Notes: generated from the letters alone by a model not told the origin. A stretch of DNA of 64,000 nucleotides from Candidatus Microgenomates bacterium (GCA_049519355.1 JBEKQV010000001.1:315946-379945); one strand, 5' to 3'. Counted from the first letter of the stretch, positions 1 through 48,410 are shown. Numbers and translations: made by a program.

Positions 1-680
1 AAACCAAATTTTTTTGCCAATTCTTTTCTGGCTTCAAGTTCTTTTTCGTAATTCTTGTCTTGCCAATGAGGAGTTGGAAGAGTTAGGGCAACGGGGAAGT
101 CAAATAAAATATCAATTTTTTCAGAATTTTTCTTTTTGTGGTCATGATCTATTTCTTCGTCCTTAAGATATCCTGTATATACCAGTATCTTCCGTCCTGG
201 AATCACGTTTTCTATAAACCTTTTACGGATTATAAAGGCAATTTCCTTTTTGTAATCCTCTGAGTGAAAAAAAGTATAATAAAGACTATCTTCCTTCCCA
301 TAGGGGATTGGTGAAAACGAACCCTTGCCCTGCACACTGGTAAAAACAAGGTCTTTATCGTAGAAAAACAGGAAACCTGGACAAAAATCAATTTCTGTGC
401 CTTGTGCGCCCCTAAATTCTTTCTCCCCACGGGCAAATCTACCTATCCTCTGTATCTCTTCTTTCGGCAGGTCTCCAAATTTTTTGTCACTATATTTTTT
501 GTCTATTCCTATAAACTTTCTCAGAATAGGCCGATCAAAAATTCTTTCATCTCCACGTCCAGGATGCAAAGAAAAGTGAGTTGTCGAATCCTCACCAAAT
601 CTCCGGAGCATTTCTTTACGTTGTGCGTACAAACCGTAGAAGAGAAACACAATTAATCCAAATATAACGTAGTAGATCAT
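1..680 (-). CDS. Hypothetical membrane-anchored protein; C-terminus cut by the window edge. N-terminal TM helix MIYYVIFGLIVFLFYGLY followed by a soluble domain.
   Basis: Translated by hand from the reverse strand: ATG at 680-678, open frame running to position 1 with no stop. Not in the ORF track because it is incomplete. Confidence 0.5.
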   Translation of the reverse strand, partial: MIYYVIFGLIVFLFYGLYAQRKEMLRRFGEDSTTHFSLHPGRGDERIFDRPILRKFIGIDKKYSDKKFGDLPKEEIQRIGRFARGEKEFRGAQGTEIDFCPGFLFFYDKDLVFTSVQGKGSFSPIPYGKEDSLYYTFFHSEDYKKEIAFIIRKRFIENVIPGRKILVYTGYLKDEEIDHDHKKKNSEKIDILFDFPVALTLPTPHWQDKNYEKELEARKELAKKFG

Positions 681-682
681 AT

Positions 683-700
683 TAATATTAATATTAATTT
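683..700. repeat. Short tandem repeat (ATATTA)x3 in the divergent intergenic region
   Basis: catATTAATATTAATATTAATttc, seen directly between the start of the minus-strand gene (680) and the plus-strand gene (801). Confidence 0.4.
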
Positions 701-800
701 CAGGCAGAATTGAGTAACTACCGCTATGATACTCCCTCTAACTACAAGATGACAAGGAGTCTGTCGAGAATGATACTAACAGTCTCTACTATTGGGAGTA

Positions 801-2000
801 ATGGGAAAAGCTATTAGTCATCAGTCGGTTCTTTTAAAATTCGGTCAAAAGTTGCAAAAGTTAAGGCAATCAAAAGGAATTACTCAGCAGGATGTTATTG
901 ATCGTGAAACTGGCAAAACAGGTAATTCAAATAATAATCCTTCTCCTAACCCTACTAATTCTATGGGTGGAAATTTACCGCCAGTCGGAGGGGGAACAAA
1001 TACCAAACTTCCTCAATCTACTCAGGCGGATGTGGAAAGTTTTAACAATGATGCCATGAATTTATCCCGACAAGCAATGTTGGCCACAGATCCTCAACAA
1101 AAAGCGACTCTAACTGCTCAATCACAAATTCTATCTAACATGGCGGAAGATAGACAAAGTGTTATGTCTTTCAATCCAATAATGGATACTTTGGCAAAAG
1201 TTCAGAAATTCTTGGGTGAATCACAAACCCTTCCATTAGCCAATTCTATATTGGGAAACTTTATTTTACCTATTCCTGGTGCAGGAGCTGGTGTAGGAGC
1301 TTATATTGGAGAAAAAGAACGGGAGATGCTTAGTCCTGGTGGATTGGAAGCTTTTTTAACTCCTCAAAATAGAATGATTGGCCAAGGAGCAACCATGATT
1401 GATCCACAAGCTCTAAAAACGGCCTTTACTTATGGAGTATTAGATTTACTTTTATATGGAGCTGGAAAATTATTACATCCCATACAAACAGTTGCTAAAT
1501 TAAGAGGTGCAGCCGCCGAAGCTGAAACTACCGGAACAGAAAATCTAGCCACTAAAATTGCAGGAGGTAGTTCGGGTGGAGCAAGAGTAATAAATGGGGA
1601 TGATATTGTTTCAGGTGTAAAAGATTGGGCGAACAACGTACCAGCATCAATGAGAGATCAGGCATTGAAATTTTCTCAGGATGTAGAAGATAAATATGCC
1701 GGAAATCAACTTAGTATAGACGATGGCCTTACGGAAAAAACGGCATCGTGGGGTAGAGGGTATACAAATGCTAACATTGAAGGAAGACCCACCGTGGCAG
1801 CAGGTGAAAGAGAGGTTGCAGACCAAATAAGCAAACAGCTTCCTGAAACCATTGCAAAATATGACAAAGTTCTTAGCATGATGTATTCAATTGCAAAACC
1901 TCTTGGAAAAGTAATACCAACCGTGGCTAGAGGAGCATTACAGGCATTAGGAATGGGAGGTGTTTATGAGGCTGGACATAAAGCAGGATTGTTGCCTTAA
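801..2000 (+). CDS. XRE-family helix-turn-helix N-terminal domain fused to a long Gly/Ala-rich C-terminal region of unknown function
   Basis: N-terminus FGQKLQKLRQSKGITQQDVIDRETGK matches the helix1-3 pattern of HTH_XRE regulators (LRxxRxxxGLTQxxL...IERG). The rest is low-complexity (GAGAGVGAYIG) with no recognisable domain. The ORF track starts at TTG 792; ATG 801 is more likely. Confidence 0.5.
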   Translation: MGKAISHQSVLLKFGQKLQKLRQSKGITQQDVIDRETGKTGNSNNNPSPNPTNSMGGNLPPVGGGTNTKLPQSTQADVESFNNDAMNLSRQAMLATDPQQKATLTAQSQILSNMAEDRQSVMSFNPIMDTLAKVQKFLGESQTLPLANSILGNFILPIPGAGAGVGAYIGEKEREMLSPGGLEAFLTPQNRMIGQGATMIDPQALKTAFTYGVLDLLLYGAGKLLHPIQTVAKLRGAAAEAETTGTENLATKIAGGSSGGARVINGDDIVSGVKDWANNVPASMRDQALKFSQDVEDKYAGNQLSIDDGLTEKTASWGRGYTNANIEGRPTVAAGEREVADQISKQLPETIAKYDKVLSMMYSIAKPLGKVIPTVARGALQALGMGGVYEAGHKAGLLP

Positions 2001-2268
2001 TGAATTTTTGAGGCCAAATTGAAAGCAACTGAGGCTATAATCAACCAAATAAATATCTCCAACATAAGTATATTATAATCCTATGTCAGACCTAGATGCA
2101 AATACAGCAAAAGCACTGAAAGTTCCGGCTTCTGATTTACTTCCTTTTTAGTTTCATTGTTATTTTATTGTTCTGAATAATCACCTCACACGTATAGTGG
2201 GAAAAAACTGAAGTTTTCTTAAGTCGTTCGTGCCTGTCACTCTAACCAAAAGTCGGGTTTTGCAAGAC

Positions 2269-2534
2269 TTTAACTTGGTTTATGGTTAATCTAATTTTTA
2301 TATGTGATAGACAACTCCTCTCAAAGCGTCCGAAAATTCGGATTCCGTAGCCTCATACCCATCTGCAAAAACTTAATTTTCTCGAATCGGTGACTCTTTC
2401 CTGTTATTGCCCTGTTCTGAGGATACTTTGACCTCGAACTTATACGAAAAAGTCTAGTAAAATCTAGTTTGTTTTGACTTGGTTTGTAGTCAATTTTAAC
2501 TTGGTTGCAGATTAGATTTTAACTTGCTCTGTAG
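2269..2534. repeat. Four copies of a direct repeat TTTWRACTTGSTYTRYAG inside a 0.9-kb non-coding region
   Basis: TTTAACTTGGTTTATGG (2269), TTTTGACTTGGTTTGTAG (2473), TTTTAACTTGGTTGCAG (2494), TTTTAACTTGCTCTGTAG (2517). The last three are nearly tandem. No ORF of 60 aa or more between 2001 and 2915. Confidence 0.45.
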
Positions 2535-2915
2535 TTAACCAGTTGACCGATTATCTACCGATTCTTTAGCTTCAGTAATCGGTGTAGGGAAACTCCTTTT
2601 TAGTTAGATTCATAATATTTTTTGATATATAGCGGATTATAATGAGACCAGTTCAAAGATGATTCTTGCTACATACAAGGTTCTCTGGAAAAAGAGAAAC
2701 TCCAAAATCTCAAAGCACCTAGCCTATCTAAAGAAAGTGGCAAAGACTTTGAAGATCACTAGGTGATTGGATGATCGTAATCAAATTGTTTTTCTGTTCC
2801 TTTACTGTTATTTACTCGTTTTTCAGGCTAGTAACTATCCCAATCTGTGATTGTTCACTTTGTAATTATTGATTATACTGTGATAAGATAGCCTGCTAAG
2901 TTAAAGCTAATTCTT

Positions 2916-3203
2916 ATGAATGATAACAATCCAAGCCCAAACCTCTCTCCAGACGAACTTACTCGAAAAGGTGAAGAAATATATCTAAACGATCTCAAAG
3001 ATAAATTAGAGCAGACCAATCGTGGTGAGTATGTTGTTATTGAGGTTGATAGTGGAAAATATTTTATAGATAAAGATGTAACAGTTGCTTTGGAAAAGGC
3101 TAAAACTGAGTATCCCCAAAAACTATTTTTTATTGTACAAATAGGCACTCTCCAGAGAAACACACTAAACTACAAACAAGCAAAAAATGAATGGTTATTT
3201 TGA
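2916..3203 (+). CDS. Small DUF5678-like protein (YVVIEVDSGKYFIDKD motif), partner of the downstream aspartic protease
   Basis: 95-aa ORF overlapping the next gene by 17 bp, so translationally coupled. The family assignment is from memory of the small-protein plus retropepsin pairing. Confidence 0.45.
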   Translation: MNDNNPSPNLSPDELTRKGEEIYLNDLKDKLEQTNRGEYVVIEVDSGKYFIDKDVTVALEKAKTEYPQKLFFIVQIGTLQRNTLNYKQAKNEWLF

Positions 3204-3597
3204 CGGCGAACGCATTTATGCGGACATTGAAATAAAAGGTGTTTTCTCTACACAAGCTACCAAATTGAAAGGTCAGATTGATACGGGTTATAGTGGCTAT
3301 CTTTCACTCCCATTTAACGAAGCATTTCCGTTAGGGCTTGTTCTTCAGGGAACGCAAGCATACACACTCGCAGACGGTTCACCTTCTTATAACTTTGTTT
3401 GTTTGGGAACGCTTATTGTAGATGGAAGAGAATTGGTAATTCCCGTAGATGTTTCTGCAAAAGCATCATTACTTATAGGAATTGGCCTTCTTGGTAAAAT
3501 CCAGAACAACTTACTAATAGACTTTGAAAACAAGAAAGTGCTGTTTAAAGAATTTAAGATAAAACCTCCCATTGCATCTAAACCTGTAGAGAAATAG
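3187..3597 (+). CDS. Retropepsin-like (clan AA) aspartic protease
   Basis: Active-site motif GQIDTGYSGYLSLP (hydrophobic-hydrophobic-D-T-G), about 136 aa. The size and glycine-rich flap region are typical of bacterial single-domain retropepsins. Confidence 0.6.
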   Translation: MNGYFDGERIYADIEIKGVFSTQATKLKGQIDTGYSGYLSLPFNEAFPLGLVLQGTQAYTLADGSPSYNFVCLGTLIVDGRELVIPVDVSAKASLLIGIGLLGKIQNNLLIDFENKKVLFKEFKIKPPIASKPVEK

Positions 3598-3697
3598 TTA
3601 AACGTTTATATTTGGAGCAATTGTTGAGTTTGTCGAGTAATTAGCTCAGGTGTGGAAGTTGTTTCACTCCAGTTAGTTGTGCTAAAATCGTCCCATT

Positions 3698-3718
3698 GAG
3701 CGAGCTGGATGGACACCC
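3698..3718 (-). repeat. Degenerate inverted copy of the 31-bp intergenic motif
   Basis: The reverse complement GGGTGTCCATCCAGCTCGCT shares TGTCCATC..AG..GCTCG with copies A-C (see features 4794, 5641, 6365). Confidence 0.3.
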
Positions 3719-3752
3719 TTTAAATGTTGTCCGTTTTTTCATATAGTACATA

Positions 3753-4271
3753 GTGATGGTTGTATATTCTTCAAAGAGAAATTGGACTGATGTTATTTGG
3801 CCCTTGATAATCTTCGTTATCAGTGCGGTTCTTATTTGGAGAAATTCGTGTTTAATATATCCAACGTCTTTTGGTTTAGCAGAATGTTACGCCTCATCGC
3901 TCAAAGAACATTTAATCGTAACAATATTATTGTTTGTTGTTGTATTTTTTTGTTTTATTCTTTACGAAGTATTTTGGAAAAAAGCTTATAAACTCGAATT
4001 GGATAGGGGGTTAATAAAGGAAACGTACGGTAAGGTGGTTAAACAGGCTGTTTTTAAATCCTTAGATTCATTAGATGGGACACAACTGCCTAGTAGAGGA
4101 AGAGGTAGTAATTTTTTCTTTGATTTTCATTTAACACTGGGAGATGGCTCAAAATCCGTTTTTACGACCCGAGGTCAGGCAAAATTACCATACGTTATTA
4201 AGGCTGTAAAGGAGATGTATCCAGAGACAAAGATAAGCGAAATTTTACAAAAGGAATCAGCCAATTTATAA
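3753..4271 (+). CDS. Hypothetical membrane protein (2 TM plus a C-terminal soluble domain)
   Basis: ORF track; hydrophobic segments LIIFVISAVLIW and ILLFVVVFFCFILY. Confidence 0.45.
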   Translation: MMVVYSSKRNWTDVIWPLIIFVISAVLIWRNSCLIYPTSFGLAECYASSLKEHLIVTILLFVVVFFCFILYEVFWKKAYKLELDRGLIKETYGKVVKQAVFKSLDSLDGTQLPSRGRGSNFFFDFHLTLGDGSKSVFTTRGQAKLPYVIKAVKEMYPETKISEILQKESANL

Positions 4272-4319
4272 ATTAATTTTTGAACCTGCCTATTAAGTGA
4301 ACTTGTGATTTTGAAGAAA

Positions 4320-4778
4320 CTACTTTTTAGAGAACCTCTTTTCTGCCTTTGATCCGGCAATCCAACCTACAATTATTGGTAAAACCCCAACGGCAAAATT
4401 AAAGTTTCCAGTCAAGAAATAGTTGACAACTATAATAATTAACTGAGAAATGAGGGCGACTCCCATGGACACATATAGTCCGGCATATCCTCGCCGCAAT
4501 CCCGTATTGAGTCCTTTCTTGAAGGATTCCTTTGCAGCTTTGTAACAGAAAAGGTAAACGAATGGAATAAATATTAGCTGGCTTATGATGGTGGAAGGAA
4601 TTAATAATGATTTAGTTACGTTTGCGTCTATAGATATGTGTTTAGTCAAACCTACGATAACCAGTATTATGAAAATGGTTGCATACTGTAAGCCATACTC
4701 GATAATAACCAGGAAAACTGCCCATTTTAGCATTAATAAAAATCTTTTTCCGTACATTACAAAAATTATAACCCCCAT
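4320..4778 (-). CDS. Hypothetical polytopic membrane protein
   Basis: ORF track; four hydrophobic helices. Confidence 0.5.
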   Translation of the reverse strand: MGVIIFVMYGKRFLLMLKWAVFLVIIEYGLQYATIFIILVIVGLTKHISIDANVTKSLLIPSTIISQLIFIPFVYLFCYKAAKESFKKGLNTGLRRGYAGLYVSMGVALISQLIIIVVNYFLTGNFNFAVGVLPIIVGWIAGSKAEKRFSKK

Positions 4779-4793
4779 TACCTAAAAGTGTAA

Positions 4794-4824
4794 TAGGTTC
4801 TTAATCTGTCCATCAGGCGGAGCC
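4794..4824 (+). repeat. 31-bp conserved intergenic motif, copy A
   Basis: TAGGTTCTTAATCTGTCCATCAGGCGGAGCC; lies 45 bp upstream of ATG 4869. Confidence 0.6.
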
Positions 4825-4868
4825 AATTGGTTTGAATATCGTGCTCGAATTGATATAATGTTCTTGAT

Positions 4869-5330
4869 ATGTCTGAAACGGTTGAATCACAAAATATTAG
4901 CGAAGTCGGTAGGGATAGCTTCGTTAGGTTTGTTGGGATTCTGAAGGATAGAGAGGGTCAAAAATACAATGCGGTAGGCTGGGAAGGAACGGGCAGTGAA
5001 TTGCAATCCCAAGTTGAAGGGGGTGCTTTGTGTCCTGCTTCATCTTTTGCCGTTGTAGCTGAAGGAATATTTAGATATAAATGGCAGGGTCCTCAAATGA
5101 AGGAGGATACAGACTCGTTGCGTGACCTTTCAAAAGCTTTGTTGGCGGGTTCGGAGATATATGGTCAGGCGGCCCAAATTGATGTGGCTGCAATTAAGGC
5201 CCAGATTAAAAAGTACGTTGAGTCGCACGGGGGAAGGTACGACGGCCAGACCGATTGGCAAGAGTTTATTAAAACTAGAGCTGTGAGATTGAAAAGTAAA
5301 GCAGATGCTATTGACGCAGCTGATATGTGA
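4869..5330 (+). CDS. Hypothetical soluble protein
   Basis: ORF track, 153 aa, no recognisable motif. Confidence 0.45.
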   Translation: MSETVESQNISEVGRDSFVRFVGILKDREGQKYNAVGWEGTGSELQSQVEGGALCPASSFAVVAEGIFRYKWQGPQMKEDTDSLRDLSKALLAGSEIYGQAAQIDVAAIKAQIKKYVESHGGRYDGQTDWQEFIKTRAVRLKSKADAIDAADM

Positions 5331-5389
5331 GCTATACACACCTTCTTTCCTCATATATTTAGTTGAATAGCAAAGTATAAAATATAACC

Positions 5390-5650
5390 ATGAAATCCAG
5401 AGTTGTTGTTATAGGGTCACTTATAGGTATTTTGGTTGGGATGGTTCTGGCCTTTTTATTTCCCAGCCTTCTACGTATAGGGTTAGAATTTAATAAAATA
5501 ATTAATAAGGGTTTAGGATACCCAAGTAATTTTTATTTGATAACCAGCGGTTCTGTCTATAATGCATATCCCACAGTCGTTTTAGTTTTCGGTTTAGTTG
5601 GAGCGGTTTTGGGTTTTGTCGCCTCCAAATTTACCCGTAATAGGTTCTGA
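5390..5650 (+). CDS. Small membrane protein (2 TM)
   Basis: ORF track; its last four codons plus the stop lie inside motif copy B. Confidence 0.4.
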   Translation: MKSRVVVIGSLIGILVGMVLAFLFPSLLRIGLEFNKIINKGLGYPSNFYLITSGSVYNAYPTVVLVFGLVGAVLGFVASKFTRNRF

Positions 5651-5672
5651 TACTGTCCATCAGGTGGAGCTC
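5641..5672 (+). repeat. 31-bp conserved intergenic motif, copy B. It contains the small hairpin CTGAT-ACTGTCC-ATCAG and is followed by a sigma70-like promoter.
   Basis: TAGGTTCTGATACTGTCCATCAGGTGGAGCT. Downstream comes TTGATG, a 17-bp spacer, then TAATAT before the PRTase gene. Confidence 0.6.
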
Positions 5673-5704
5673 GGAAAGTTTTCAATTGATGAAAAAAACT
5701 TTTC

Positions 5705-6367
5705 GTGTTAATATCCCGGGTAATGGCTACGGAGATCGGACAAAGAACACAAGATGCGAGACTCCAATTAAAAGAAACAATTTATGATGGTATTACTTAT
5801 GAATGTCCAACATGGGAACAGATGGGATTATTCAATTTTGATTTAGCAAAGCAGGTCATTCAGTGCAGCGAATCTTTTGATAGACTAATTGCCCTTGCAA
5901 GGGGAGGGTGGACTTGGGCAAAAGATTTTGCCGATGCTGTAAAAATTCCAGAGCTTTCTTCTATGAGAATAAAATCCTACTTAGGTGTTAATGAGTCAGG
6001 AGAACCAGAGATCACTCAACCATTAACAGATTCCATAGTTGGGGAAAACGTTCTTTTGTTTGATGAAGTTATTGATTCGGGTAAGACAATTAAAAAGACC
6101 CACGAATACTTAAAAATAATGGGAGCACGAAGCATACGAACAGCCACATTATGCTATAAACCTCATTCTGTAGTAACACCGGATTTTTATGCGTTTCGTA
6201 CTAGTGCGTGGGTTGTTTTTCCTCATGAGACCAGAGAATTTATTGACATCTCAACCAATAAATGGATGTCCGAAGGACTATCAATGGACGAAATTAAAAG
6301 TCGTTTAATTATGATAGGTGTCACTCCTGAACAGGTAGAACTTTATTGTTCCCTGATTGTAAAATAG
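5705..6367 (+). CDS. gpt: Purine phosphoribosyltransferase (xanthine-guanine PRTase-like)
   Basis: PRPP-binding motif VLLFDEVIDSGKT; N-terminal TWEQMGLFNFDLAKQV and C-terminal SAWVVFPHE resemble E. coli Gpt (TWDML... / TWIEQPWD). The true start is possibly ATG 5723. Confidence 0.65.
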   Translation: MLISRVMATEIGQRTQDARLQLKETIYDGITYECPTWEQMGLFNFDLAKQVIQCSESFDRLIALARGGWTWAKDFADAVKIPELSSMRIKSYLGVNESGEPEITQPLTDSIVGENVLLFDEVIDSGKTIKKTHEYLKIMGARSIRTATLCYKPHSVVTPDFYAFRTSAWVVFPHETREFIDISTNKWMSEGLSMDEIKSRLIMIGVTPEQVELYCSLIVK

Positions 6368-6395
6368 GTTCTGAATCTGTTGATCAGGTGAAGCC
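6365..6395 (+). repeat. 31-bp conserved intergenic motif, copy C
   Basis: TAGGTTCTGAATCTGTTGATCAGGTGAAGCC; starts at the TAG stop of the PRTase gene. Confidence 0.6.
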
Positions 6396-6432
6396 AGTTG
6401 TTTATTGCATGAATAGGGATCTTATCGGGTCC

Positions 6433-6891
6433 TTAATGAGTTTTGTTGGAAAACAGGGCAAAGAGTCTTTCAATAGCGTTTTTCTTTTCTGAGGCTTCTG
6501 GGGCAGGAGTTTGCCCGGTTTGAGGGGGATTTACGGCTTTGTGGAAAAAACTCATCGCTTTTTCGTGTTTTTGGATCTCTTGATGTTCTTTTTGTGCCTC
6601 GTGGAAAAATTTCATGGCTTCCTCGTGAGTTCTGGGCAGAGGGGGTTGCGGAGCATCTTCAACAAACGGCGGCACCTCCTTAACAAAAGGGGGGACATAT
6701 ACCTTCCCGGGTGGTTTTTCGGGTGTGGGCCAGCCGTTTTTTTGAACGTTGGCTAGAGATTTTTTGAGAGCATCAACATCAAGCCCTTTTTTTTCGGGGG
6801 CGGGAGCTTCGGTATTAACTTCTTTTGATTCTTCCACATAACGATTGTAGCTGACATTTTGAAGACATTGCAAGTTGAAATTATCTTGCAA
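6433..6891 (-). CDS. Hypothetical Pro-rich protein with an internal repeat (EAMKFFHEAQKEHQEIQKHEKAMSFFHKA)
   Basis: ORF track. TTG start, so the start is uncertain. A 14-bp perfect inverted repeat overlaps the start. Confidence 0.35.
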   Translation of the reverse strand: MQDNFNLQCLQNVSYNRYVEESKEVNTEAPAPEKKGLDVDALKKSLANVQKNGWPTPEKPPGKVYVPPFVKEVPPFVEDAPQPPLPRTHEEAMKFFHEAQKEHQEIQKHEKAMSFFHKAVNPPQTGQTPAPEASEKKNAIERLFALFSNKTH

Positions 6892-6898
6892 TGTCTTC
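6861..6898. other. Perfect 14-bp inverted repeat (hairpin) with a 10-nt loop
   Basis: GAAGACATTGCAAG ttgaaattat CTTGCAATGTCTTC, seen directly. No T-run follows on either strand. Confidence 0.5.
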
Positions 6899-6992
6899 CC
6901 TTTGGTGAGCTGAGATTTCTGCCGATTCTGTTTGTACTTTCAGGCAAATTGAAATTGTGGAGATTGTAGACTTTTAGTAAATCCTGTACGGA

Positions 6993-7358
6993 TTGCATTC
7001 TACAAGGGGAGCTTCGTTTCAGACTTTTTTTGCCAATATCGTAGACTCAAGAATCTATTGGGTATATGCTTGTCATATGGCCTCACCTGCACAAATAATT
7101 GCCTTAATTTTTGTTATTCTTGGACTTTTAAGTCTTATTCGCTGGTGGTGTATGGGATTTCCGAAAAAGAAATATCCATTATGGCCATTTGTACTGATAA
7201 TTCTCGCTGTGTGGGCCATTTTATTGCTTGTTGCATGGTTTACCAGCAGCCAATCGCAATTTAGGGAGTTTGTTGCGACCTGTAAAGGCTACCTAATAGG
7301 AATGTTTGTTATGTATATCGCAATGCGTGCTGCTGGGTGGAAAGGGGGTGAAAAATGA
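6993..7358 (+). CDS. Small membrane protein (start probably at the internal MASPAQII, 7078)
   Basis: ORF track; 2-3 TM helices; overlaps the next gene by ATGA. Confidence 0.4.
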   Translation: MHSTRGASFQTFFANIVDSRIYWVYACHMASPAQIIALIFVILGLLSLIRWWCMGFPKKKYPLWPFVLIILAVWAILLLVAWFTSSQSQFREFVATCKGYLIGMFVMYIAMRAAGWKGGEK

Positions 7359-7546
7359 AACTTAAGCATTTTGGGTTTTGGGATATTGGGCTGACAAAGT
7401 GGTCGGTGCTGTTTTTTACTCTATTTGTAGTTTCTGTCTGGCCGGCGTTTGCCCACTGGGTAGAAAGCATTAATTGGGTTTGGTTTTTGGTAATAGCATT
7501 GATCCTAGGTGCAAGACCTTTCCTGGATTTTTTAAAAAGTAATTGA
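7355..7546 (+). CDS. Small membrane protein (63 aa, 2 TM)
   Basis: ORF track; ATGA overlap with the upstream gene. Confidence 0.4.
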   Translation: MKLKHFGFWDIGLTKWSVLFFTLFVVSVWPAFAHWVESINWVWFLVIALILGARPFLDFLKSN

Positions 7547-7561
7547 GAGTACAATGTAATC

Positions 7562-7750
7562 ATGGGGCTTGCCACAAAACTTGTTATCTTTGCCGCAATT
7601 ATAATCTCCATCAATAATTTTGTGTTGTACTGGGCTATTAAAAATAACGGGATAAACTCGAAAGGGCATTCATTTGGCACAATAGTATTTTTGATCAGTC
7701 TTATCGAAATTGTGGCAATTGGAATTTATGGTTATATCCACTTAAAGTAA
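7562..7750 (+). CDS. Small membrane protein (62 aa, 2 TM)
   Basis: ORF track. Confidence 0.35.
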   Translation: MGLATKLVIFAAIIISINNFVLYWAIKNNGINSKGHSFGTIVFLISLIEIVAIGIYGYIHLK

Positions 7751-7803
7751 TTGCTACTCTCTCCATATATGTCGCTGCGTGACAAGATTTGGTAAAATAA
7801 CAT

Positions 7804-8136
7804 ATGGCTAATAAGAATATTGTTCGGCCAGCTCGCCACAAGGTTTCCGGCGGCGTGGTTCATAAACTGCCTGATGATCTGAAGAAAGTTTTGATCTCTG
7901 ATCCCAAAGCATTGGCAATATGGGAGAGTCTTACGCCTTTGGCCAGAAACGAATGGATTTGTTGGACAATTAATGTTAAAAAGCAGGAAACTAGGAGGGA
8001 TCATGTTAAAAGAGTGCAAAGTGAGCTTAAAGAAGGAATGCGCCGTCCTTGTTGTTGGATTGGTTGCATTCATAGGAAAGACAAACCACTGAGTCCCTCC
8101 GTACAATATGTACTGAGTAGACGGCAGGGGAGATGA
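7804..8136 (+). CDS. YdeI/OmpD-associated (OmdA) family protein
   Basis: Motif AIWESLTPLARNEWICWTINVKKQETRRDHVKRVQSELKEG matches the YdeI/OmpD-associated family pattern (WExLxPxxRREYIxWIxxAKKxETRxxRI). Confidence 0.5.
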   Translation: MANKNIVRPARHKVSGGVVHKLPDDLKKVLISDPKALAIWESLTPLARNEWICWTINVKKQETRRDHVKRVQSELKEGMRRPCCWIGCIHRKDKPLSPSVQYVLSRRQGR

Positions 8137-8206
8137 AAGGCTGCGCTCCTAACACTGGGTAAAAGAAGTCTATTAAAGGTGGTTGGGTAAATAGTATAAT
8201 GATTCC

Positions 8207-8593
8207 ATGATTAAGATAGCTGACAAAGGAAATACGGTTATAGAAATCGCAAGAGGGTCTCAAGAAAATTATGAACAATGGTCAGTATATCCTCATAAGG
8301 TAGACGATCCCACCTTTCAAAAACTTACGAATGAACAGCAGAATCTGGCAAAAGAATTAAGCATAACCGGAATCAGAAACAGAGAAGATCTTTTTAGTCA
8401 TTTAATGAATCAAGATATCGCGGAAGCGATTGCAAGACTTAATGATAATCTCAGTTCCCCAAGATTTAAAGGCCTTGGACTTGTTGCAAATAAAATAGGT
8501 ATTGAACCCACGGGCGAGATTGCACAGATATTGGAACAGAAATACGGAATTAAGTCGGTTGAAGGTGATACTCCTGCAGAAACAAAAGGTTAA
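8207..8593 (+). CDS. Hypothetical protein
   Basis: ORF track, 128 aa. Confidence 0.4.
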   Translation: MIKIADKGNTVIEIARGSQENYEQWSVYPHKVDDPTFQKLTNEQQNLAKELSITGIRNREDLFSHLMNQDIAEAIARLNDNLSSPRFKGLGLVANKIGIEPTGEIAQILEQKYGIKSVEGDTPAETKG

Positions 8594-8622
8594 TCTTTCT
8601 ATAAGTAGAAGGAGGGTAATTA

Positions 8623-9096
8623 TTACTTTTCCTTAGTCGAGGCGGCTTTCTTGGTTACTTTCTTGACTTTAGGGACTTTTACTTCTTTTATAACTTTTTC
8701 CTCTATAACTGAAGGTGCCTGGGCCACAGTCTCGATAATTTTGGGTTGCAAAAGGTTTAAGATTTTATCCAATTTAACATTTATAGCCTCGATCTGAGCT
8801 TTGCTTTGATCAAAACTTGGGGCTTGGGGTCTAAATTCGCTTCTTTCGGGACGTCTGGAATCAGACCTTCCACCGTTTATTTTCTCAAAACAGTCGCTGC
8901 AGTAAACCGGTTTGCCGTTTGTGGGTTTAAAAGGAACTTGGCATTCCTTGCCGCAGTTACTACAGATGGCTGAGAACATTTCTCTATTGCCTCCGAAAGA
9001 AGATCTTCCGCCTCTAAATCCACCTCTACCTCCACCACGGGAGAAACCACCACGGTATCCACCTGCGCTTCTATCATCTCTGTTGAAATTTCCCAT
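8623..9096 (-). CDS. CxxC-x17-CxxC zinc-ribbon protein with an N-terminal RGG/Gly-Arg-rich region
   Basis: CSNCGKECQVPFKPTNGKPVYCSDC has exactly 17 residues between the CxxC pairs; the N-terminus reads GGYRGGFSRGGGRGGFRGGR. Confidence 0.6.
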   Translation of the reverse strand: MGNFNRDDRSAGGYRGGFSRGGGRGGFRGGRSSFGGNREMFSAICSNCGKECQVPFKPTNGKPVYCSDCFEKINGGRSDSRRPERSEFRPQAPSFDQSKAQIEAINVKLDKILNLLQPKIIETVAQAPSVIEEKVIKEVKVPKVKKVTKKAASTKEK

Positions 9097-9155
9097 AGTC
9101 TGTATTATATCATACTTCTAGCCAATATTGTGAGCAATTTGGTTTGAGGCCTTTT

Positions 9156-9695
9156 TCAGGTTTTGGAGGCACCATTGAGCTCTTTGTCGAACTTCTCCTT
9201 GGATTCACCTATAATTTTATAAGCTTCCCTTTTCCCCACCCATCCTTTAATCTTTACCCACTTGTTTTCAAGCTTTTTATACGTTTCAAAGAAATTCTGA
9301 ACCTCTTTTTTAAAGTGGTCGGGTAGATCGGAGATCGCATCTATGTGCTTATTTCTAGGGTCTTTTTCTGCAACCGCCACAATTTTATAGTCTCTGCCGC
9401 TTTCGTCTTCCATATCCAGTACCCCAATAGGTTTGACCGAAACAACGCAACCGGGGAATACCGACTCAGAGATAATCACCAAGACGTCAAGGTGATCTCC
9501 GTCATCTGCTCTTGTTTCTGGAATAAAGCCATAATCGACCGGATAAAAAACCGAAGAGTAAAGGACTCTGTCCAGCCTGATCTCGTCTAATTTTTCATCA
9601 TACTCGTATTTGTTGTGGTTTCCTTTTGGGATTTCAACGACAGTGTTTATTATTTCGGGGGCTTTGTCTCCTAAAGTCAATTTTGAATACGCCAT
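9156..9695 (-). CDS. ppa: Inorganic pyrophosphatase
   Basis: DYGFIPETRADDGDHLDVLV and the other family I PPase signatures. Confidence 0.9.
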   Translation of the reverse strand: MAYSKLTLGDKAPEIINTVVEIPKGNHNKYEYDEKLDEIRLDRVLYSSVFYPVDYGFIPETRADDGDHLDVLVIISESVFPGCVVSVKPIGVLDMEDESGRDYKIVAVAEKDPRNKHIDAISDLPDHFKKEVQNFFETYKKLENKWVKIKGWVGKREAYKIIGESKEKFDKELNGASKT

Positions 9696-9728
9696 ATCAG
9701 AAGATATTAATGCAAACGACGTCTTTTT

Positions 9729-11441
9729 TCAATTAATCTTGGAGGTTTCTTGGGACTTGGCAGCCTTTATAAACGCCAGAAAGACAGGGTGTGGGGTTAA
9801 AGGCCGGCTGATATATTCCGGGTGGAACTGTGTCCCGATGAAGAAAGGATGATTTTTGAGTTCTATCGCTTCCACCAGTTTACCATCCGGGGATGTTCCG
9901 GAAATGATAAAACCCGCTTTTTCAAATTGCTTTTTATATAAGTTATTGAATTCGTATCTATGTCTGTGCCTTTCGAAGATAATCAGCCTTTTATCCGATT
10001 TAAATTTTGCCTGGGCACTGTCTTTTGGCTGAAACCAGGGGGCGTTATCAACATTTCCGTATTTTTTATAACAGTTTTCCAAGACCGTTCCGGGCGAAAT
10101 TATGCATGGCCAGGCGCCGAGTCTTATCGTTCCTCCATATTGATGCTTTGCCAGATATTCTTTCTGGTCTTCAATAACATGAATCACAGGATATTTTGTT
10201 TTTGGATCAACCTCGGAACTATTGGCACCCTTTAAATGGAGAACATCCCGTGCAAATTCTATTGTTGCCATTTGCATGCCGAAACAAAGTCCAAGGTACG
10301 GAATTTTATTTTCCCGGGCAAATTTTGCAGCCATTAATTTTCCTTCCGTGCCTCTGGAACCCCAGCCTTGCGGGACAATTATTCCACCAAATCCTTCTAA
10401 GGTCTTTTTGCCTGTTTCCAGTTCCTCGCTGTCTATCCAGGTTGTTTTTACGTTTACGCCTATAACTGAAGCCGCGTGTCTTAGGGATTCGATTACCGAA
10501 ACGTATGAATCGGCCAGTTGATATTCTCCGGTAACAAAGTATTTCCCGACGATGGCGATTTTAACATCCTTGGGATATTTTTTATTGATTCTCGCAGTCA
10601 TTTCCTGCCATTTTTTGATTGTATGATGCTTGTTGCTGGTAAGTCCCAGAAGCTTCAGGCAAGTCGAAGCCAAATGGTGGTGTGGTTTATGGAAAAGCTG
10701 CGGTACGTCATAAATCGTATTCAAATCCGGGACCGAAAATAATCTGTCGGGGGTGATATTGCAAAAAAGTGCGAGTTTGTCCAGACGTTTTTTATCAATC
10801 GGGAATTCGCTTCGGGCAACAATTATATCGGGTTGAATTCCCAGGCTGTTCAATACATGAACTGAGGTTTGGGCGGGTTTACTTTTTAGTTCTCCAACAT
10901 TGGCGAGGTAGGGGAGATAGGTTACGTGTAAGTGTATTACGTCTTTAGGGTATTTTAACTTAAGAATTCTTGCCGCTTCAAAGAAAATTCCGTTTTTATA
11001 TTCCCCTACAGTGCCTCCATATTCGACGATGACGATCTCGGCATTATTTACTTCTCCGGAAAGTTTTATTCTTCTGATGATTTCGTCGGTAACATGAGGA
11101 ATAACATCAACAGTGTCTCCGCCGTATTCAAACGATCTTTCCTTGCGGATTACTTCGCCATAGACCTGCCCGGCTGTAACATAGTTTTCTCTTCTGAGAT
11201 TCTCATGAACAAATCTTTCGTAATGACCTAAATCTTCATCTGTTTCCATCCCATCATGAGTTACAAAAACTTCCCCGTGCTCCTGTGGTCTAAGCGTTCC
11301 GGCATCAACATTAAAGTACATATCGACTTTTGTGGGGGTAACTTTATATCCGCGGGATTTTAGAAGGAGAGCTAAAGAGGAGACGGTAATGCCTTTACCT
11401 AGGCCTGAAACAACTCCGCCCGAGACGAAGATGAATTTCAT
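9729..11441 (-). CDS. pyrG: CTP synthase
   Basis: N-terminus MKFIFVSGGVVSGLGKGI; glutamine amidotransferase domain GLCFGMQ; 570 aa. Confidence 0.95.
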   Translation of the reverse strand: MKFIFVSGGVVSGLGKGITVSSLALLLKSRGYKVTPTKVDMYFNVDAGTLRPQEHGEVFVTHDGMETDEDLGHYERFVHENLRRENYVTAGQVYGEVIRKERSFEYGGDTVDVIPHVTDEIIRRIKLSGEVNNAEIVIVEYGGTVGEYKNGIFFEAARILKLKYPKDVIHLHVTYLPYLANVGELKSKPAQTSVHVLNSLGIQPDIIVARSEFPIDKKRLDKLALFCNITPDRLFSVPDLNTIYDVPQLFHKPHHHLASTCLKLLGLTSNKHHTIKKWQEMTARINKKYPKDVKIAIVGKYFVTGEYQLADSYVSVIESLRHAASVIGVNVKTTWIDSEELETGKKTLEGFGGIIVPQGWGSRGTEGKLMAAKFARENKIPYLGLCFGMQMATIEFARDVLHLKGANSSEVDPKTKYPVIHVIEDQKEYLAKHQYGGTIRLGAWPCIISPGTVLENCYKKYGNVDNAPWFQPKDSAQAKFKSDKRLIIFERHRHRYEFNNLYKKQFEKAGFIISGTSPDGKLVEAIELKNHPFFIGTQFHPEYISRPLTPHPVFLAFIKAAKSQETSKIN

Positions 11442-11529
11442 TTTTCAAATGAAATTCCATCACACGATGTCAACTTCATGAGTCGTATCATAAGCTAATT
11501 AAAAGCTCTTTTCAAATAGCAAAATATAC

Positions 11530-11913
11530 TTATTTTTCAACTTCAAACCAATCAATCGGAGTTTGTTCGTCCGGTTCGCCGTTATAATTAACCGTTATTT
11601 CCTCACCCTTTTTTATTGGTTTAATGGCTCTATAAACCATGGAAACTGTTTTGAAATTTTGTTTCCAGTCTGCGTTCGGATGATAGGAGTGATTGTAAAT
11701 TGAACCGTATCCCAAAATCAGGGATGCCCCGCGCGTGCTTCTCCAGGGGTAGATGTAATAATTTAAAGAGGTTTTTTCCAACTGCTTCCGTTCTTTGGTG
11801 TTAAAAGTAAGTACCGGACAGTTCTCAATCACATCACCGACTTTAAAATTGCGGGCGGCAAAAACCCCTCGACCCTTTTTTGCGACTCTCCTGACAACTA
11901 TGTTTTTCCTCAT
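11530..11913 (-). CDS. SET-domain protein (putative lysine methyltransferase)
   Basis: GRGVFAARNFKVGDVI ... NHSYHPN ... EEITVNY are the classic SET motifs (GxG, NHSCxPN, ELxxDY). Confidence 0.7.
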   Translation of the reverse strand: MRKNIVVRRVAKKGRGVFAARNFKVGDVIENCPVLTFNTKERKQLEKTSLNYYIYPWRSTRGASLILGYGSIYNHSYHPNADWKQNFKTVSMVYRAIKPIKKGEEITVNYNGEPDEQTPIDWFEVEK

Positions 11914-11937
11914 TTATGTATAATATCTTATCTTATT

Positions 11938-12921
11938 ATGAAAACTTGGCAAAGAATCAAGGACAATCCAAATCTTTTGAACCAATATCTGGTTCGGGAA
12001 AAAGTTATTGATACGATCCGCTATTTCTTTAAGTCTCAGGGCTTTCACGAAGTTTTTACTCCGGAGCTGGTTCCTGTTCCTTCCATTGAACCAAACTTGG
12101 AAGTTTTTGAAACCGAACTTAGAACATCTAAAGGATTGAAACGCCGAGGATTTCTAATTATGAGTCCGGAGTTTTCCATAAAGAAACTTTTGTCCGCGGG
12201 AGTAGGGAATTGTTTTGAAATTACAAGATGTTTTAGAAATGAAGAAGAAGTAAGTTCTCTCCACAACCCCGAATTTACGATGCTTGAGTGGTATAGGGTT
12301 CAGGCCGATTATACGGATGTAATGAAAGATTTTGAACAGCTTTTTACTAAGATTATTATGGAGGTTAATCCCAAGGTCGATTTATCGAAGTGGAAGTACC
12401 AGGGTGAAACCTATGATCTTTCGCTTCCTTGGCCGAGAATCAGTTTTGAAAGGGCTTTCGCCAAATTTGCCGGGAAAAAGATCGAGGATGTAAAAGATGA
12501 AGATTTTTATCAAATCTTCTTTAATGACATTGAGCCAAAATTAAGGGAAAGTGGAAGACCTGCAATTATTTACGATTATCCGATTTCACAGGCGGCTTTA
12601 TCCCGACCGAAGGCATCGGATCCTAGGTTTGCCGAAAGATTTGAAGTGTTTTTAGCAGGAGTTGAGCTGGGAAATTGCTTTTCGGAGCTGACAGACGCAG
12701 TGGAGCAAAAGAAGCGCTTTGAATCGGACTTGACTCTCCGCCGGGCCCAGCATAAATCGGATTATCCGATTGATGATGATCTGATAGATGCTCTCGAGGC
12801 GGGCTTGCCTCCGGTTTCGGGAATTGCAGTTGGAGTGGATAGACTTATTATGCTTGCCGCCGATGTTCCTTCAATTGCAGACACCTTATTTTTTCCGGGT
12901 AAGGAGCTATTTGACCTCTAA
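11938..12921 (+). CDS. epmA: Elongation factor P--(R)-beta-lysine ligase (class II LysRS paralog GenX/PoxA)
   Basis: Class II aaRS motifs FEITRCFRNE and GLPPVSGIAVGVDRL. It is a truncated LysRS-like protein of 327 aa located directly upstream of efp. Confidence 0.8.
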   Translation: MKTWQRIKDNPNLLNQYLVREKVIDTIRYFFKSQGFHEVFTPELVPVPSIEPNLEVFETELRTSKGLKRRGFLIMSPEFSIKKLLSAGVGNCFEITRCFRNEEEVSSLHNPEFTMLEWYRVQADYTDVMKDFEQLFTKIIMEVNPKVDLSKWKYQGETYDLSLPWPRISFERAFAKFAGKKIEDVKDEDFYQIFFNDIEPKLRESGRPAIIYDYPISQAALSRPKASDPRFAERFEVFLAGVELGNCFSELTDAVEQKKRFESDLTLRRAQHKSDYPIDDDLIDALEAGLPPVSGIAVGVDRLIMLAADVPSIADTLFFPGKELFDL

Positions 12922-12949
12922 GGCCTCCAGGCATTAAAATACGCGTGCG

Positions 12950-13516
12950 GTGGATACAATTAATGCGGGTAATATTACAAAAGGTAGCTTCATTATTTTT
13001 AAGGGAGCTCCGGTACTGATCACAAAGGCTGAATTTATGTCGCCCGGAAAGGGCTCTCCTGTTATGCGGATAAAGTTTAAGAATGTACAAACAGGTTCCG
13101 CGGGGGAGTTTACTTATAAAACAGCCGAGACAGTCGAGGTTGCGGAAGTTGAGAAAAAAGAAATGGAGTACCTCTATAGAGATGGTGATGACTTGGTATT
13201 TATGGATCCGAAATCTTATGATCAGGTTTCAATTCCTATGAGTTTAATTGAAGGACAATTTGGCTACTTAACCCCAAACCTTAAATGTTGGATTGTCTGG
13301 TATAAAGGCAAAGCCATTGGTGCGGCGCTTCCGACTCATGTAACTTTGCAAGTGACCGAATCCCCGGATGAGGTTGCCGGAAACCGTTCCAATGCTCCCA
13401 AAAAGACTGTGAAGTTGGAAACCGGAACCACGGCCCAAGTGCCGCTTTTTATCAAGGTCGGTGAAAAGGTTATGCTGGATACGGCAACCGGTGAATATTT
13501 GGGTAGGACAAAATAA
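12950..13516 (+). CDS. efp: Elongation factor P
   Basis: 188 aa, KOW-like N-terminus with the modified-lysine loop SPGKGSP; typical EF-P length. Confidence 0.9.
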   Translation: MDTINAGNITKGSFIIFKGAPVLITKAEFMSPGKGSPVMRIKFKNVQTGSAGEFTYKTAETVEVAEVEKKEMEYLYRDGDDLVFMDPKSYDQVSIPMSLIEGQFGYLTPNLKCWIVWYKGKAIGAALPTHVTLQVTESPDEVAGNRSNAPKKTVKLETGTTAQVPLFIKVGEKVMLDTATGEYLGRTK

Positions 13517-13562
13517 TTAAAATTTTCAGTGCTTCTTCAGGAAACGATGCTTTAATTTCTCA

Positions 13563-14096
13563 ATGGACGAAGTTAAAGAAGAAAATAAAGAAATATCCCC
13601 AAAATCCTCAAACTCTACATTGTATTTAGTTTTTGTAATTATTCTTTTAGTGGTTGCCGGCGGAGCGTTTTATTTCGGTAGAAAATCAGGTGAAGCAAAG
13701 ATGACTGCTTTTTATCAAAGCCAGCCAAAGCCTTCGGGAATGGGAATACCAAGACCTTCCGGTCCTCCAAATTTTAAAGGACAAAAATTATCTGATGTTC
13801 AAATGCTTTCCAGTGCAACTCTTATTTATCCTGGGGTTTCTAATACGGATGTTAATAGAACTCTTATTAATTGGACACTTTCGACTACGCAAAATTCGGA
13901 TGGCACAGTGACAGTGAAATTAACCCCTGCTGAGCCGGAGGCTACAGAGGGTGATACTACCCAGACTTTTACTGTCAAACCCGGTGATAAACTCTATTTT
14001 GACGACTTAAATCCAAACGATGACCAACCCGGAATGGATGTTAACACTCATGATGACCTGGGGATTTTAGTAGACAGCAACGGGATTATTCAATAA
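13563..14096 (+). CDS. Hypothetical membrane-anchored secreted protein
   Basis: ORF track; a single N-terminal TM. Confidence 0.4.
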   Translation: MDEVKEENKEISPKSSNSTLYLVFVIILLVVAGGAFYFGRKSGEAKMTAFYQSQPKPSGMGIPRPSGPPNFKGQKLSDVQMLSSATLIYPGVSNTDVNRTLINWTLSTTQNSDGTVTVKLTPAEPEATEGDTTQTFTVKPGDKLYFDDLNPNDDQPGMDVNTHDDLGILVDSNGIIQ

Positions 14097-32527: not shown

Positions 32528-33193
32528 ATGAAAAAACTTTCATCACCTTTTGCCTTGATTAAGAAGTCAGTGGAGATTTTTGAAAAGAGGGAGAACCTCA
32601 TTTTTCTTATGGAAGTCTATCTACCGGTTGCGTTTTTCTCACTTCTTTCTGTTGCTCAAGATTATCTACCAGCATCAATTAAAAATTCGAATTCTGTTTG
32701 GTTGTCTATCGGAACTGGGGTTTTACAATTGATTTATCTTCTTGTTGGTGTTTTTGTCACCGCGTCGGCAATTACAGCTTTAGGAAAGGTAGTTGAAGGA
32801 GGAGAGTTATCCCTTCGGAAGACGTTTAGAGCCGGATGGAAAAAGTACTGGATTTTTCTTCTCTTGAGCATTGTTATAACTGCGCTTTATCTACTTGGCT
32901 TTGTACTTCTTATAGTTCCCGGGGTTCTGTTTGTTGTTTGGTTTGCTTTTAGCAAGTTTATTGCAATCGAAACGGGGTCAGGGATTAAGGAATCTTTACT
33001 TAAAAGCAAAACGTTGGTAAAAGGAATTTACTGGAAAACACTCGGCAGGCTTATAATTTTTGGTCTTTTTGCGGTTGTAATCGATGTAGTTCTGAGTGTA
33101 ATTCCTTATGGACTGGGTACTATTATTAGTAGCCTTTTGGGCGGACTTTTTATGCTCCCAACCTATCTTCTTTATAAGGAAATTAGTGGATAA
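32528..33193 (+). CDS. Hypothetical polytopic membrane protein
   Basis: ORF track; 4-5 TM helices. Confidence 0.45.
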   Translation: MKKLSSPFALIKKSVEIFEKRENLIFLMEVYLPVAFFSLLSVAQDYLPASIKNSNSVWLSIGTGVLQLIYLLVGVFVTASAITALGKVVEGGELSLRKTFRAGWKKYWIFLLLSIVITALYLLGFVLLIVPGVLFVVWFAFSKFIAIETGSGIKESLLKSKTLVKGIYWKTLGRLIIFGLFAVVIDVVLSVIPYGLGTIISSLLGGLFMLPTYLLYKEISG

Positions 33194-46976: not shown

Positions 46977-46984
46977 CTTCTTTG

Positions 46985-47057
46985 TGGGTGCGCATGGATT
47001 CGGACCATGGACATCTACTTTATAAGAGTAGCGCTCTACCGCTGAGCTACGCACCCT
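46985..47057 (-). tRNA. tRNA-Ile with anticodon UAU (gene TAT)
   Basis: Hand-folded cloverleaf: acceptor GGGTGCG/CGCACCC, D-arm GCTC-AGCGGTA-GAGC, anticodon arm CTACT-CTTATAA-AGTAG (U33, anticodon UAU, A37), T-arm CATGG-TCCGAAT-CCATG, discriminator A. Confidence 0.65.
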
Positions 47058-48404: not shown

Positions 48405-48410
48405 ATCTTG

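Follow-up and report, generated by a model that had tools for sequence, protein, structure and literature searches.

What is the origin of a short sequence that recurs between small genes at one place in the chromosome of an uncultured bacterium? The question arises in a 64,000 nt stretch of DNA (the window) from Candidatus Microgenomates bacterium, a member of the Candidate Phyla Radiation (CPR; GCA_049519355.1 JBEKQV010000001.1:315946-379945), in which an earlier reading made without database searches (the sequence-only reading) had picked out a 31-bp motif in three direct copies and one degenerate copy, bounding small hypothetical genes. The CPR, or Patescibacteria, have tiny genomes, and little is known of how they gain genes. 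The observation of the motif is real, and it is now largely explained: the motif is most likely a shortened, tRNA-Asn-like attachment-site repeat, found at the boundaries of small gene blocks beside an integrated mobile element.

The motif and its relatives

The three direct copies stand where they had been described, at 4794-4824, 5641-5671 and 6365-6395 on the plus strand, and their recurrence is far beyond chance: each has two or three mismatches to the consensus, as against no matches at all in 100 dinucleotide-preserving shuffles. Conservation of the unit reaches 3 nt further left of the 31-mer ([GA]TAA/AAA), and we term the resulting 31-34 bp motif type 1. Copy A (4791-4824, plus strand; TAATAGGTTCTTAATCTGTCCATCAGGCGGAGCC) was recovered by both the consensus scan and nhmmer; copy B (5638-5671, plus strand; TAATAGGTTCTGATACTGTCCATCAGGTGGAGCT) overlaps the TGA stop codon of an 86-aa open reading frame (ORF), and copy C (6362-6395, plus strand; AAATAGGTTCTGAATCTGTTGATCAGGTGAAGCC) begins at the TAG stop codon of a phosphoribosyltransferase (PRTase) gene. 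A fourth, inverted and degenerate copy had been placed at 3698-3718, where only one 8-mer is common in the inverted orientation. Instead, the sequence at 3675-3715 on the plus strand is a relative of the motif in the direct orientation, here called the type 2 site, in which a core, AAAATCGTCCCATTGAGCGAGC (3684-3705), is followed by a right arm, TGGATGGACAC (nhmmer E = 9e-6). The type 2 core is identical in two related contigs, L015 and L017, and differs by no more than two bases in L002 and in both copies of L010. A profile of both types finds exactly four members in the window (3675-3715, 4791-4832, 5638-5675 and 6362-6403), all of them within 2.7 kb.

The copies are intergenic. Copy A lies between the divergent genes at 4320-4778 (minus strand) and 4869-5330 (plus strand), whilst the gene downstream of copy C is convergent (6433-6891, minus strand). 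Contact with a stop codon, which had been ascribed to every copy, holds for copy B (the TGA of 5390-5650) and copy C (the TAG of 5723-6367) but not for copy A, upstream of which there is no co-oriented ORF. The flanking ORFs are not paralogues; hence the motif does not represent a coding 3' end common to related genes, which the sequence-only reading had named as the finding that would undo it.

Relatives were found through one exact-pattern scan per collection (genomes and metagenomes), followed by local fuzzy scans, and these related contigs and genomes are identified here by L numbers. The metagenome scan missed two contigs of the Joint Genome Institute that bear exact pattern matches, Ga0187849_1003485 (L021) and Ga0208687_1000043 (L020), so absence from that collection is weak evidence. 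The motif proved to recur as a family in at least eight other Microgenomates- or Gottesmanbacteria-like genomes. True members were recognised in a complete 1.09-Mb Gottesmanbacteria chromosome (L002/L040), in a Patescibacteria metagenome-assembled genome (MAG; L008, three copies) and in the metagenome contigs L010, L011 (two copies), L015 (two), L016 (three) and L017. Identical 24-mers are found in the window, L008, L010, L016 and L017 despite the divergence of the neighbouring proteins, which are only 46-81% identical there; hence the motif is either constrained or moving horizontally. The full-length copies of any one array all face one way, as direct repeats 273-1110 bp apart at a single locus, and in the complete chromosome the exact match is restricted to one 8-kb block. 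The motif is therefore specific to a locus rather than dispersed, and on these grounds the suggestion that it might be a repetitive extragenic palindromic (REP) sequence or a miniature inverted-repeat transposable element was rejected.

Other scan hits proved not to belong to the family. Those in L001, L003, L005, L006, L009, L012 and L013 are chance matches, and that in L004 is the anticodon arm of a tRNA-Glu. The hit in L007, a Peregrinibacteria MAG, is a longer, different repeat (about 100 nt or more, at 1699-1790 and 4034-4125), which contains AAGGTTCTGATTCTGTTCATCAGG and is unrelated to the motif family beyond that stretch. A CRISPR array was likewise dismissed, given the spacing of 273-1110 bp and the genes held in the intervals, as was a dif or terminus site, GC skew being positive throughout from 3 kb to 64 kb with no switch at the motif. 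The locus lies at 54% of the complete chromosome, a position that is uninformative without a known origin.

A tRNA-Asn gene, a serine recombinase and the probable origin of the motif

The context of these repeats begins to the left of the window, and can be followed in a contig of the same species, L028 (one of three, L028-L030; a window position is the L028 position minus 9200). There a tRNA-Asn(GTT) gene occupies 2040-2112 on the strand of the motif, about 7.1 kb left of the window and 10.8-13.5 kb upstream of the copies. Overlapping its 3' half in antisense is a gene encoding a 534-aa large serine recombinase (LSR; L028 2073-3677, minus strand), with Pfam Resolvase and Recombinase domains. 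The last 12 or so codons of the recombinase gene (L028 2073-2112) are antisense to the tRNA, and its stop codon falls within the anticodon loop. Together the two genes make up the left end of an island, at about -7160 to -5523 in window coordinates; lying some 7-9 kb to the left, beyond the coordinates considered in the sequence-only reading, this context had been missed there.

The same arrangement recurs elsewhere. A homologue of the recombinase overlaps the 3' half of tRNA-Asn in L033, L034, L036, L038 and L039 as well, making six genomes with L028, and in the two for which the stop codon was located it lies in the anticodon loop (L028) or the anticodon stem (L036). More than 2,700 homologues were found at E <= 1e-20, the best matches coming mostly from sources with names of Patescibacteria-type MAGs; scans of viral contigs for both site types and for the recombinase returned nothing. 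After the recombinase come genes for an AAA_25 helicase, a protein with a DnaG-type zinc ribbon (primase), an HTH_17/MerR protein, called in some of the strain contigs, and hypothetical proteins, and the backbone genes are common to other recombinase islands. GC content is 0.33-0.40 across L028 2000-14000, from the tRNA to about window position 4800 at copy A, versus 0.42-0.45 outside. The distal part of this integrated low-GC island of about 11 kb occupies 1-3674 of the window and reaches as far as the type 2 site (3675-3715), which is likely to be the distal, attR-type junction of the recombinase island; in L033, too, the recombinase island has a type 2 element at its distal end. Beyond the type 2 site follow the three type 1 copies, and all four are co-oriented with tRNA-Asn.

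This common polarity is seen in four cases, the window species, L017, L033 and L041, and the order of the parts in the other three is informative. In L017 a tRNA-Asn (1585-1513, minus strand) is followed by a type 2 site at 1049, a type 1 copy at 674 and a fragment resembling a tRNA 3' end at 208-177, all co-oriented. In L033 the order is an intron-bearing tRNA-Asn, an 8.5-kb recombinase island, a type 2 site (3088), four genes, a second type 2 site (1028), one gene and, finally, an element at 514-477. This last is a clear remnant of tRNA-Asn, which has lost the T-arm but otherwise extends from the anticodon stem to the 3' end (against tRNA-Asn, p < 0.0005), and is identical at 16 of 16 positions to the 3' end of the L034 tRNA. 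Such a layout is what would be expected if repeated integration into tRNA-Asn pushed the original 3' part of the gene to the far end. In L041, a 1.13-Mb contig, an intron-bearing tRNA-Asn (8841-9176) precedes a diverged, co-oriented type 1 copy at 11466, and in L016 a tRNA-Asn 3' fragment (5120-5148) stands directly before three type 1 copies.

Similarity between the sequences runs along the same path. Type 1 resembles the L033 remnant at 514-477 (p = 0.0002), the L017 fragment at 208-177 (p = 0.004) and the type 2 sequence of L033 (p = 0.009), the last of which in turn resembles tRNA-Asn (p = 0.009). These intermediates, together with the context, suggest that type 1 is itself linked to tRNA-Asn. 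In the alignment, GTAA of the motif falls on GT(T)AA of the anticodon loop, TAGGTTC on the 3' strand of the anticodon stem and the variable loop, and ...GG.GGAGC on the 3' strand of the acceptor stem; both this 3' end, ...GG.GGAGC, and the flank YAGATRGGMAC are shared. Aligned in this way, the left edge of conservation in the motif coincides with the end of the recombinase ORF.

The right edge may be a point of exchange. All site types end in ...GAGC, which is followed by one of a limited number of right modules (TAGATAGGCAC..., CAATTG... or AAnTAGCCTCAA...). The same right modules also follow the tRNA itself, and the left modules (the tRNA 3' end, type 1, type 2 and a further one, type 3) combine freely with them at ...GAGC|. 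Homology between L015 and L002 around the yqfO gene sets in exactly at GGAGC and breaks off where the next copy of the motif ends. When attP was reconstructed by hand from type 2 and the flank on the recombinase side, it took the form CGTCC-N18-GGACG, with 9 of 14 pairs complementary and its centre at G|A of GAGC; attB, also reconstructed by hand, was symmetric about a different centre from attP. Local alignment found no duplicate of tRNA-Asn at the right end of the island.

On balance, and with restrained confidence, we think that types 1 and 2 are att-type repeats left by successive integrations at tRNA-Asn, bounding cargo or remnant cassettes. Mobile elements would have integrated one after another into the tRNA gene, each bringing its own tRNA-like 3' segment and thereby pushing earlier elements, with their junction repeats, downstream; the older elements would have been reduced to small cargo blocks with their own promoters, or may never have been anything else. 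The motif would then be a shortened and diverged segment of tRNA-Asn, from the anticodon loop (GTTAA becoming GTAA) to the 3' end (...GGAGC), and the serine recombinase family of the same array would be the simplest candidate for the enzyme acting on it. Strand exchange could occur at the left edge, in the anticodon loop, so that the element would contain the whole recombinase ORF, or else at the right edge (GAGC|), the point at which left and right modules have been recombined between genomes. Excision would be expected to give circular junctions such as type 2|AGAACAGGACG. The strong conservation of the motif between genomes suggests either that a recombinase still recognises it or that it has spread horizontally with the elements.

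Several other features of these loci were noted. In several CPR genomes the anticodon loop of tRNA-Asn(GTT) is split by a group I intron (Rfam RF00028, 61-95 bits): L033 (11613-11842, minus strand), L036 (11655-11862, minus strand), L039 (10582-10790, minus strand), L041 (8802-9130, plus strand) and, judged by eye, L034 (about 11840-11630, minus strand). ARAGORN missed the tRNA-Asn genes that bear these introns, and those of the window species and L038 have no intron. Inside the recombinase island of L036, at 8259-8369 on the minus strand, is a LOOT RNA (RF03000, 77.8 bits). The type 3 left module upstream of yqfO (L040 9860-9957, equivalent to L002 about 7220-7123, minus strand) contains GCGGGATTTGAACC, the reverse complement of a T-arm, and on the other strand looks like a broken tRNA that neither ARAGORN nor Rfam (E <= 1) calls.

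Gene blocks, promoters and hairpins

Each type 1 copy in the window bounds a block of one or two genes. Between the type 2 site and copy A are cassette genes for a hypothetical membrane protein of 171-172 aa (3753-4271, plus strand) and, on the strand opposite to the motif, a multi-pass membrane protein of 152 aa (4320-4778, minus strand). Copies A and B enclose a two-gene cassette (4869-5650, plus strand) encoding a 153-aa hypothetical protein (4869-5330) and an 86-aa membrane protein (5390-5650), and copies B and C a PRTase-family protein of 214 aa as called (5723-6367, plus strand; Pfam PF00156, E = 9e-20). To the left of the type 2 site, the part of the island inside the window includes a gene for a 399-aa low-complexity protein with an XRE-like N-terminus (801-2000) and small genes at 2916-3203 and 3187-3597.

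The cassette-like organisation that had been proposed fits well with the related genomes, in which the copies bound blocks that vary in content and in gene orientation, with the polarity of the copies kept. Different genes stand between the repeats in the window, L002, L008, L010, L015, L016 and L017, whilst the anchors, pyrG, a 62-aa gene and yqfO, are conserved, and the intervening genes may be on either strand, those of L008 1968-2279, L016 5519-5740 and window 4320-4778 all being on the minus strand. The yqfO gene lies between sites in L002 and L015 and in a site-free operon in L041. The 153-aa protein belongs to a rare family (11 clusters), of which a homologue adjoins related sites in L042 too; the relative orientation of gene and site is opposite in the two genomes.

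The sites of L042 are three copies, at 1910, 1518 and 743 (all on the minus strand), of a relative intermediate between types 1 and 2, GTTCTAAACTCGTACCATTGAGTCCGC(ATCGC)AAATTAG..., and they adjoin ppa as well as the homologue of the 153-aa protein. In L016 a direct repeat of about 100 bp (5018-5115 and 6118-6215), which duplicates the 5' part of a small ORF (VPNxVLHSYLSGYFNDTTPEAV...), brackets the tRNA-Asn fragment together with its three type 1 cassettes, as though homologous (Campbell-type) recombination had placed this whole block in that gene.

Blocks as small as these, with one or two genes and a spacing of 273-1100 bp, and sites so highly conserved across genomes might also be produced by an active, integron-like cassette system assembled from other parts. 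Types 1 and 2 would then be dedicated recombination sites for single-gene cassettes of 0.3-1 kb with their own promoters, rather than leftovers of larger elements, and would be served in trans by a recombinase, which could be a large serine recombinase of the family described above or else a tyrosine recombinase, so far unseen, that acts on the CTGA-N9-TCAG dyad. The recombination of left and right modules at GAGC|, the different settings of yqfO in L002, L015 and L041, and the two orientations of the 153-aa gene beside its sites would all suit such a system. We nevertheless think it unlikely, since the strain contigs are identical with no mobility seen, the contigs yielded no circular junction or empty site, no recombinase is found consistently beside the arrays, and several of the cassette genes, such as yqfO and the PRTase gene, are housekeeping-like. 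Equally doubtful, in our judgement, is the wider proposition of an undescribed exchange of cassettes in the CPR, whereby a tRNA-Asn-targeting LSR family acts on pseudo-tRNA sites and single genes are captured, stacked and swapped downstream of the tRNA; were it true, it would constitute an integron-like platform for gene capture built from entirely different parts.

Of the identities offered by the sequence-only reading, that of an attC-like cassette recombination site comes nearest: the idea of a recombination site fits best, but no defining feature of attC is present. The motif is only 31-34 bp long with a single dyad of 4-5 bp, and its only GTT is followed by CTGA and not by RRRY, so attC architecture was rejected. 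No Phage_integrase-type Pfam match was found among 20 ORFs of the window (792-14096) and 10 ORFs of L002, L008 and L016, and the only recombinase near the array is the serine recombinase about 10 kb away. There is a topoisomerase IB gene 1.4 kb from the array in L008, and a weak rve_3 match in L016.

The right arms of the sites pose a separate question, as they often start with a -35-like hexamer (TTGACA, TAGGCA or TTAGCC) 3-5 nt after GAGC. Promoter-like boxes had been reported after copies A and B, and are indeed present, as TTGAAT-16-TATAAT (4832-4859) after A and, by eye, TTGATG-17-TAATAT after B; the number of promoter-like matches in the region, though, equals that expected from shuffles. 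The gene at 3753-4271 is preceded by TTTAAA-17-TATAGT (3719-3747), and appears to be leaderless or nearly so. More generally, -10-like boxes 5-9 nt before start codons, with no Shine-Dalgarno sequence, are seen in the window (3742-3758, 4854-4871 and 5709-5725), upstream of yqfO in L015 and L002, and at L008 2390-2406, and their proximity to the starts suggests that the mRNAs of the cassette genes are leaderless or near-leaderless. In L002, L010 and L015 a conserved promoter module of about 45 nt (GCTAGATAGGCAC-N16/17-TATACT-N6-ATG) is reused before unrelated genes.

The motif could accordingly be read as a cis-regulatory element specific to this locus, a site for a regulator upstream of promoters near pyrG and ppa whose likeness to tRNA-Asn is coincidental. 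Around two-thirds of the copies do have a co-oriented gene 20-55 nt downstream with a -10-like box in between, and the motif has conserved arms around a variable centre, as do sites that bind dimers. Yet there is no co-oriented gene downstream of window copy C, L008 1923, L016 5454 or L042 1910 and 743, and the -10 box stands anywhere between about 10 and 38 nt away from the motif; given that about a third of the copies across genomes lack such a gene and that the spacing is so variable, the general operator or promoter role first suggested is unsupported. Furthermore, the right arms of the L033 sites resemble terminator hairpins and not promoters, shuffles yield promoter-like matches at least as often as the region does, and regulation would leave unexplained the fixed polarity to tRNA-Asn, the tRNA remnants in the arrays and the recombinase island. 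We regard this explanation as distinctly unlikely.

A function at the RNA level is very unlikely. It would make the motif a tRNA-like or T-arm-like hairpin at the 3' ends of mRNAs, acting as a terminator, processing signal or stabiliser, and is prompted by copies that start at, or no more than about 25 nt after, a co-oriented stop codon (window copies B and C, L002, L008 1923, and L016 5454 and 6062) and by four CUGA/UCAG pairs that are almost always present. The hairpin CTGAT-n7-ATCAG that had been attributed to each copy in the window is intact in copy B only, copy A having CTTAA and copy C CTGAA, and copy A has no stem. When folded as RNA on both strands each copy was no more stable than shuffles (z -1.3 to +0.1), and there is no run of T after the hairpin. 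Nor is there covariation in 17 aligned copies, as the pairs are nearly invariant, a fifth pair is broken in eight of them, there is only one double change, and 61 of 500 shuffles performed equally well. Copies between divergent genes (window copy A and L008 2333) follow no co-oriented gene at all. Comparison of the motif with Rfam was negative both at gathering thresholds and at E <= 5.

A number of observations weigh against successive integration at tRNA-Asn, the reading that we prefer. Type 1 is not significantly similar to intact tRNA-Asn by sequence alone (p = 0.1-0.28), and in L040 no tRNA-Asn was detected in the 10 kb upstream of the type 1 and type 2 copies. The common polarity has an exception, a partial type 1-like copy at a contig end in L017 (2611-2634) whose orientation is opposite. 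No recombinase island was found to end in a type 1 copy, and those of L034, L036, L038 and L039 have no type 1 or type 2 sequence recognisable at the far end by regular expression or profile. The contigs of the window species (up to 30 collection blocks) all have the same arrangement, and among them no empty site, no product of excision and no polymorphic cassette was seen. A repeat of only 2 bp is what large serine recombinases normally leave; long direct repeats therefore need an element that carries a tRNA-like replacement segment, which is plausible here. With promoter-like boxes close downstream of many copies, the motif might also have a regulatory role. Finally, a decaying scar should be much less conserved than the motif is, which argues for some present-day function, and it is for this reason that active cassettes and locus-specific regulation are kept as alternatives.

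Elsewhere in the window three further features were recorded. A predicted tRNA-Ile with the anticodon TAT (46984-47056, minus strand; ARAGORN, and Rfam at 70.7 bits) adjoins two tRNA-Met(CAT) genes at 48410-48605; Ile-UAU tRNAs are uncommon in bacteria. A 137-nt direct repeat of 74% identity (34177-34313 and 36764-36900) lies in the adjacent large minus-strand ORFs 33183-35546 and 35590-37839, which are probably tandem paralogues. A truncated gene resembling a class II aminoacyl-tRNA synthetase (11938-12921; Pfam tRNA-synt_2, 327 aa) adjoins the gene for elongation factor P (EF-P) at 12950-13516, the arrangement expected for a predicted EF-P modification enzyme of the EpmA/PoxA type.

Comparison with known systems

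A tRNA-anchored island with att repeats is of a familiar kind; what is unfamiliar is the lineage, and in our literature search no paper was found on serine-recombinase elements of the CPR at tRNA genes. The locus would represent a hot spot for integration at tRNA-Asn in Microgenomates, combining a family of large serine recombinases, conserved pseudo-tRNA junctions and rapidly changing blocks of small genes. If the sites are active, they would provide a route for gene flux in these organisms, and the recombinase together with its site might be tried out as a genetic tool; if they are mere scars, the locus is a genomic island of the ordinary sort, with junctions that account for the repeats.

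Among systems with sites of similar size, the dif sites of integrative mobile elements exploiting Xer (IMEX) and of pdif modules are alike in their length (about 28-31 bp), in the conservation of their arms around a variable centre, and in their arrangement as direct repeats that bound inserted modules. The present sites differ from them in that there is no switch in GC skew, the sequence is unlike known dif sites, and the context is a tRNA with a serine recombinase and not Xer. REP sequences and the bacterial interspersed mosaic elements (BIMEs) that they form offer another parallel, as intergenic imperfect palindromes of about 35 bp, often found after stop codons, with a [GA]TAG-like tetranucleotide before them. 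However, REPs with their associated tyrosine transposases (RAYTs) are dispersed in tens to hundreds of copies, often alternating, whereas here one to four direct copies are found at one locus and no RAYT was seen.

The arrays of integrons are similar in their one site per small cassette, their single orientation of sites and a content that varies between relatives. Unlike integrons, this locus has no IntI-type tyrosine recombinase, attI site or Pc promoter, and attC sites, composed of R''/L''/L'/R' with an R' of GTTRRRY, span 57-141 bp compared with the 31-34 bp seen here. The cassettes at this locus, moreover, appear to carry their own promoters and have genes on either strand. The composite islands formed by the staphylococcal cassette chromosome (SCC) bear a likeness to the array in the window: they rely on the CcrAB large serine recombinases, have direct repeats of the 3' end of rlmH, and consist of tandem elements and recombinase-less pseudo-elements separated by short direct repeats. 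In SCC, however, the target is a protein-coding gene rather than a tRNA, repeats measure about 15-18 bp, elements extend over many kilobases, and both the bacteria and the recombinases are unrelated to those considered here.

Of the systems described so far, the tycheposon islands of Prochlorococcus come closest; in them, repeats of partial tRNAs lie between adjacent elements (Hackl et al., bioRxiv 10.1101/2020.12.28.424599). Successive integrations of tycheposons push older elements inward and leave degenerate remnants, and a minority of them have large serine recombinases (10.1101/2020.12.28.424599). The islands resemble one another in having an intact tRNA at one end with an adjacent integrase, co-oriented repeats between the elements, and primase and helicase genes. 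They differ in that the repeats described here are of two or three shortened and strongly conserved types, instead of faithful partial copies of the tRNA, and in that most units here consist of one gene, span 0.3-1 kb and have promoter-like boxes of their own, in a host that belongs to the Microgenomates of the CPR.

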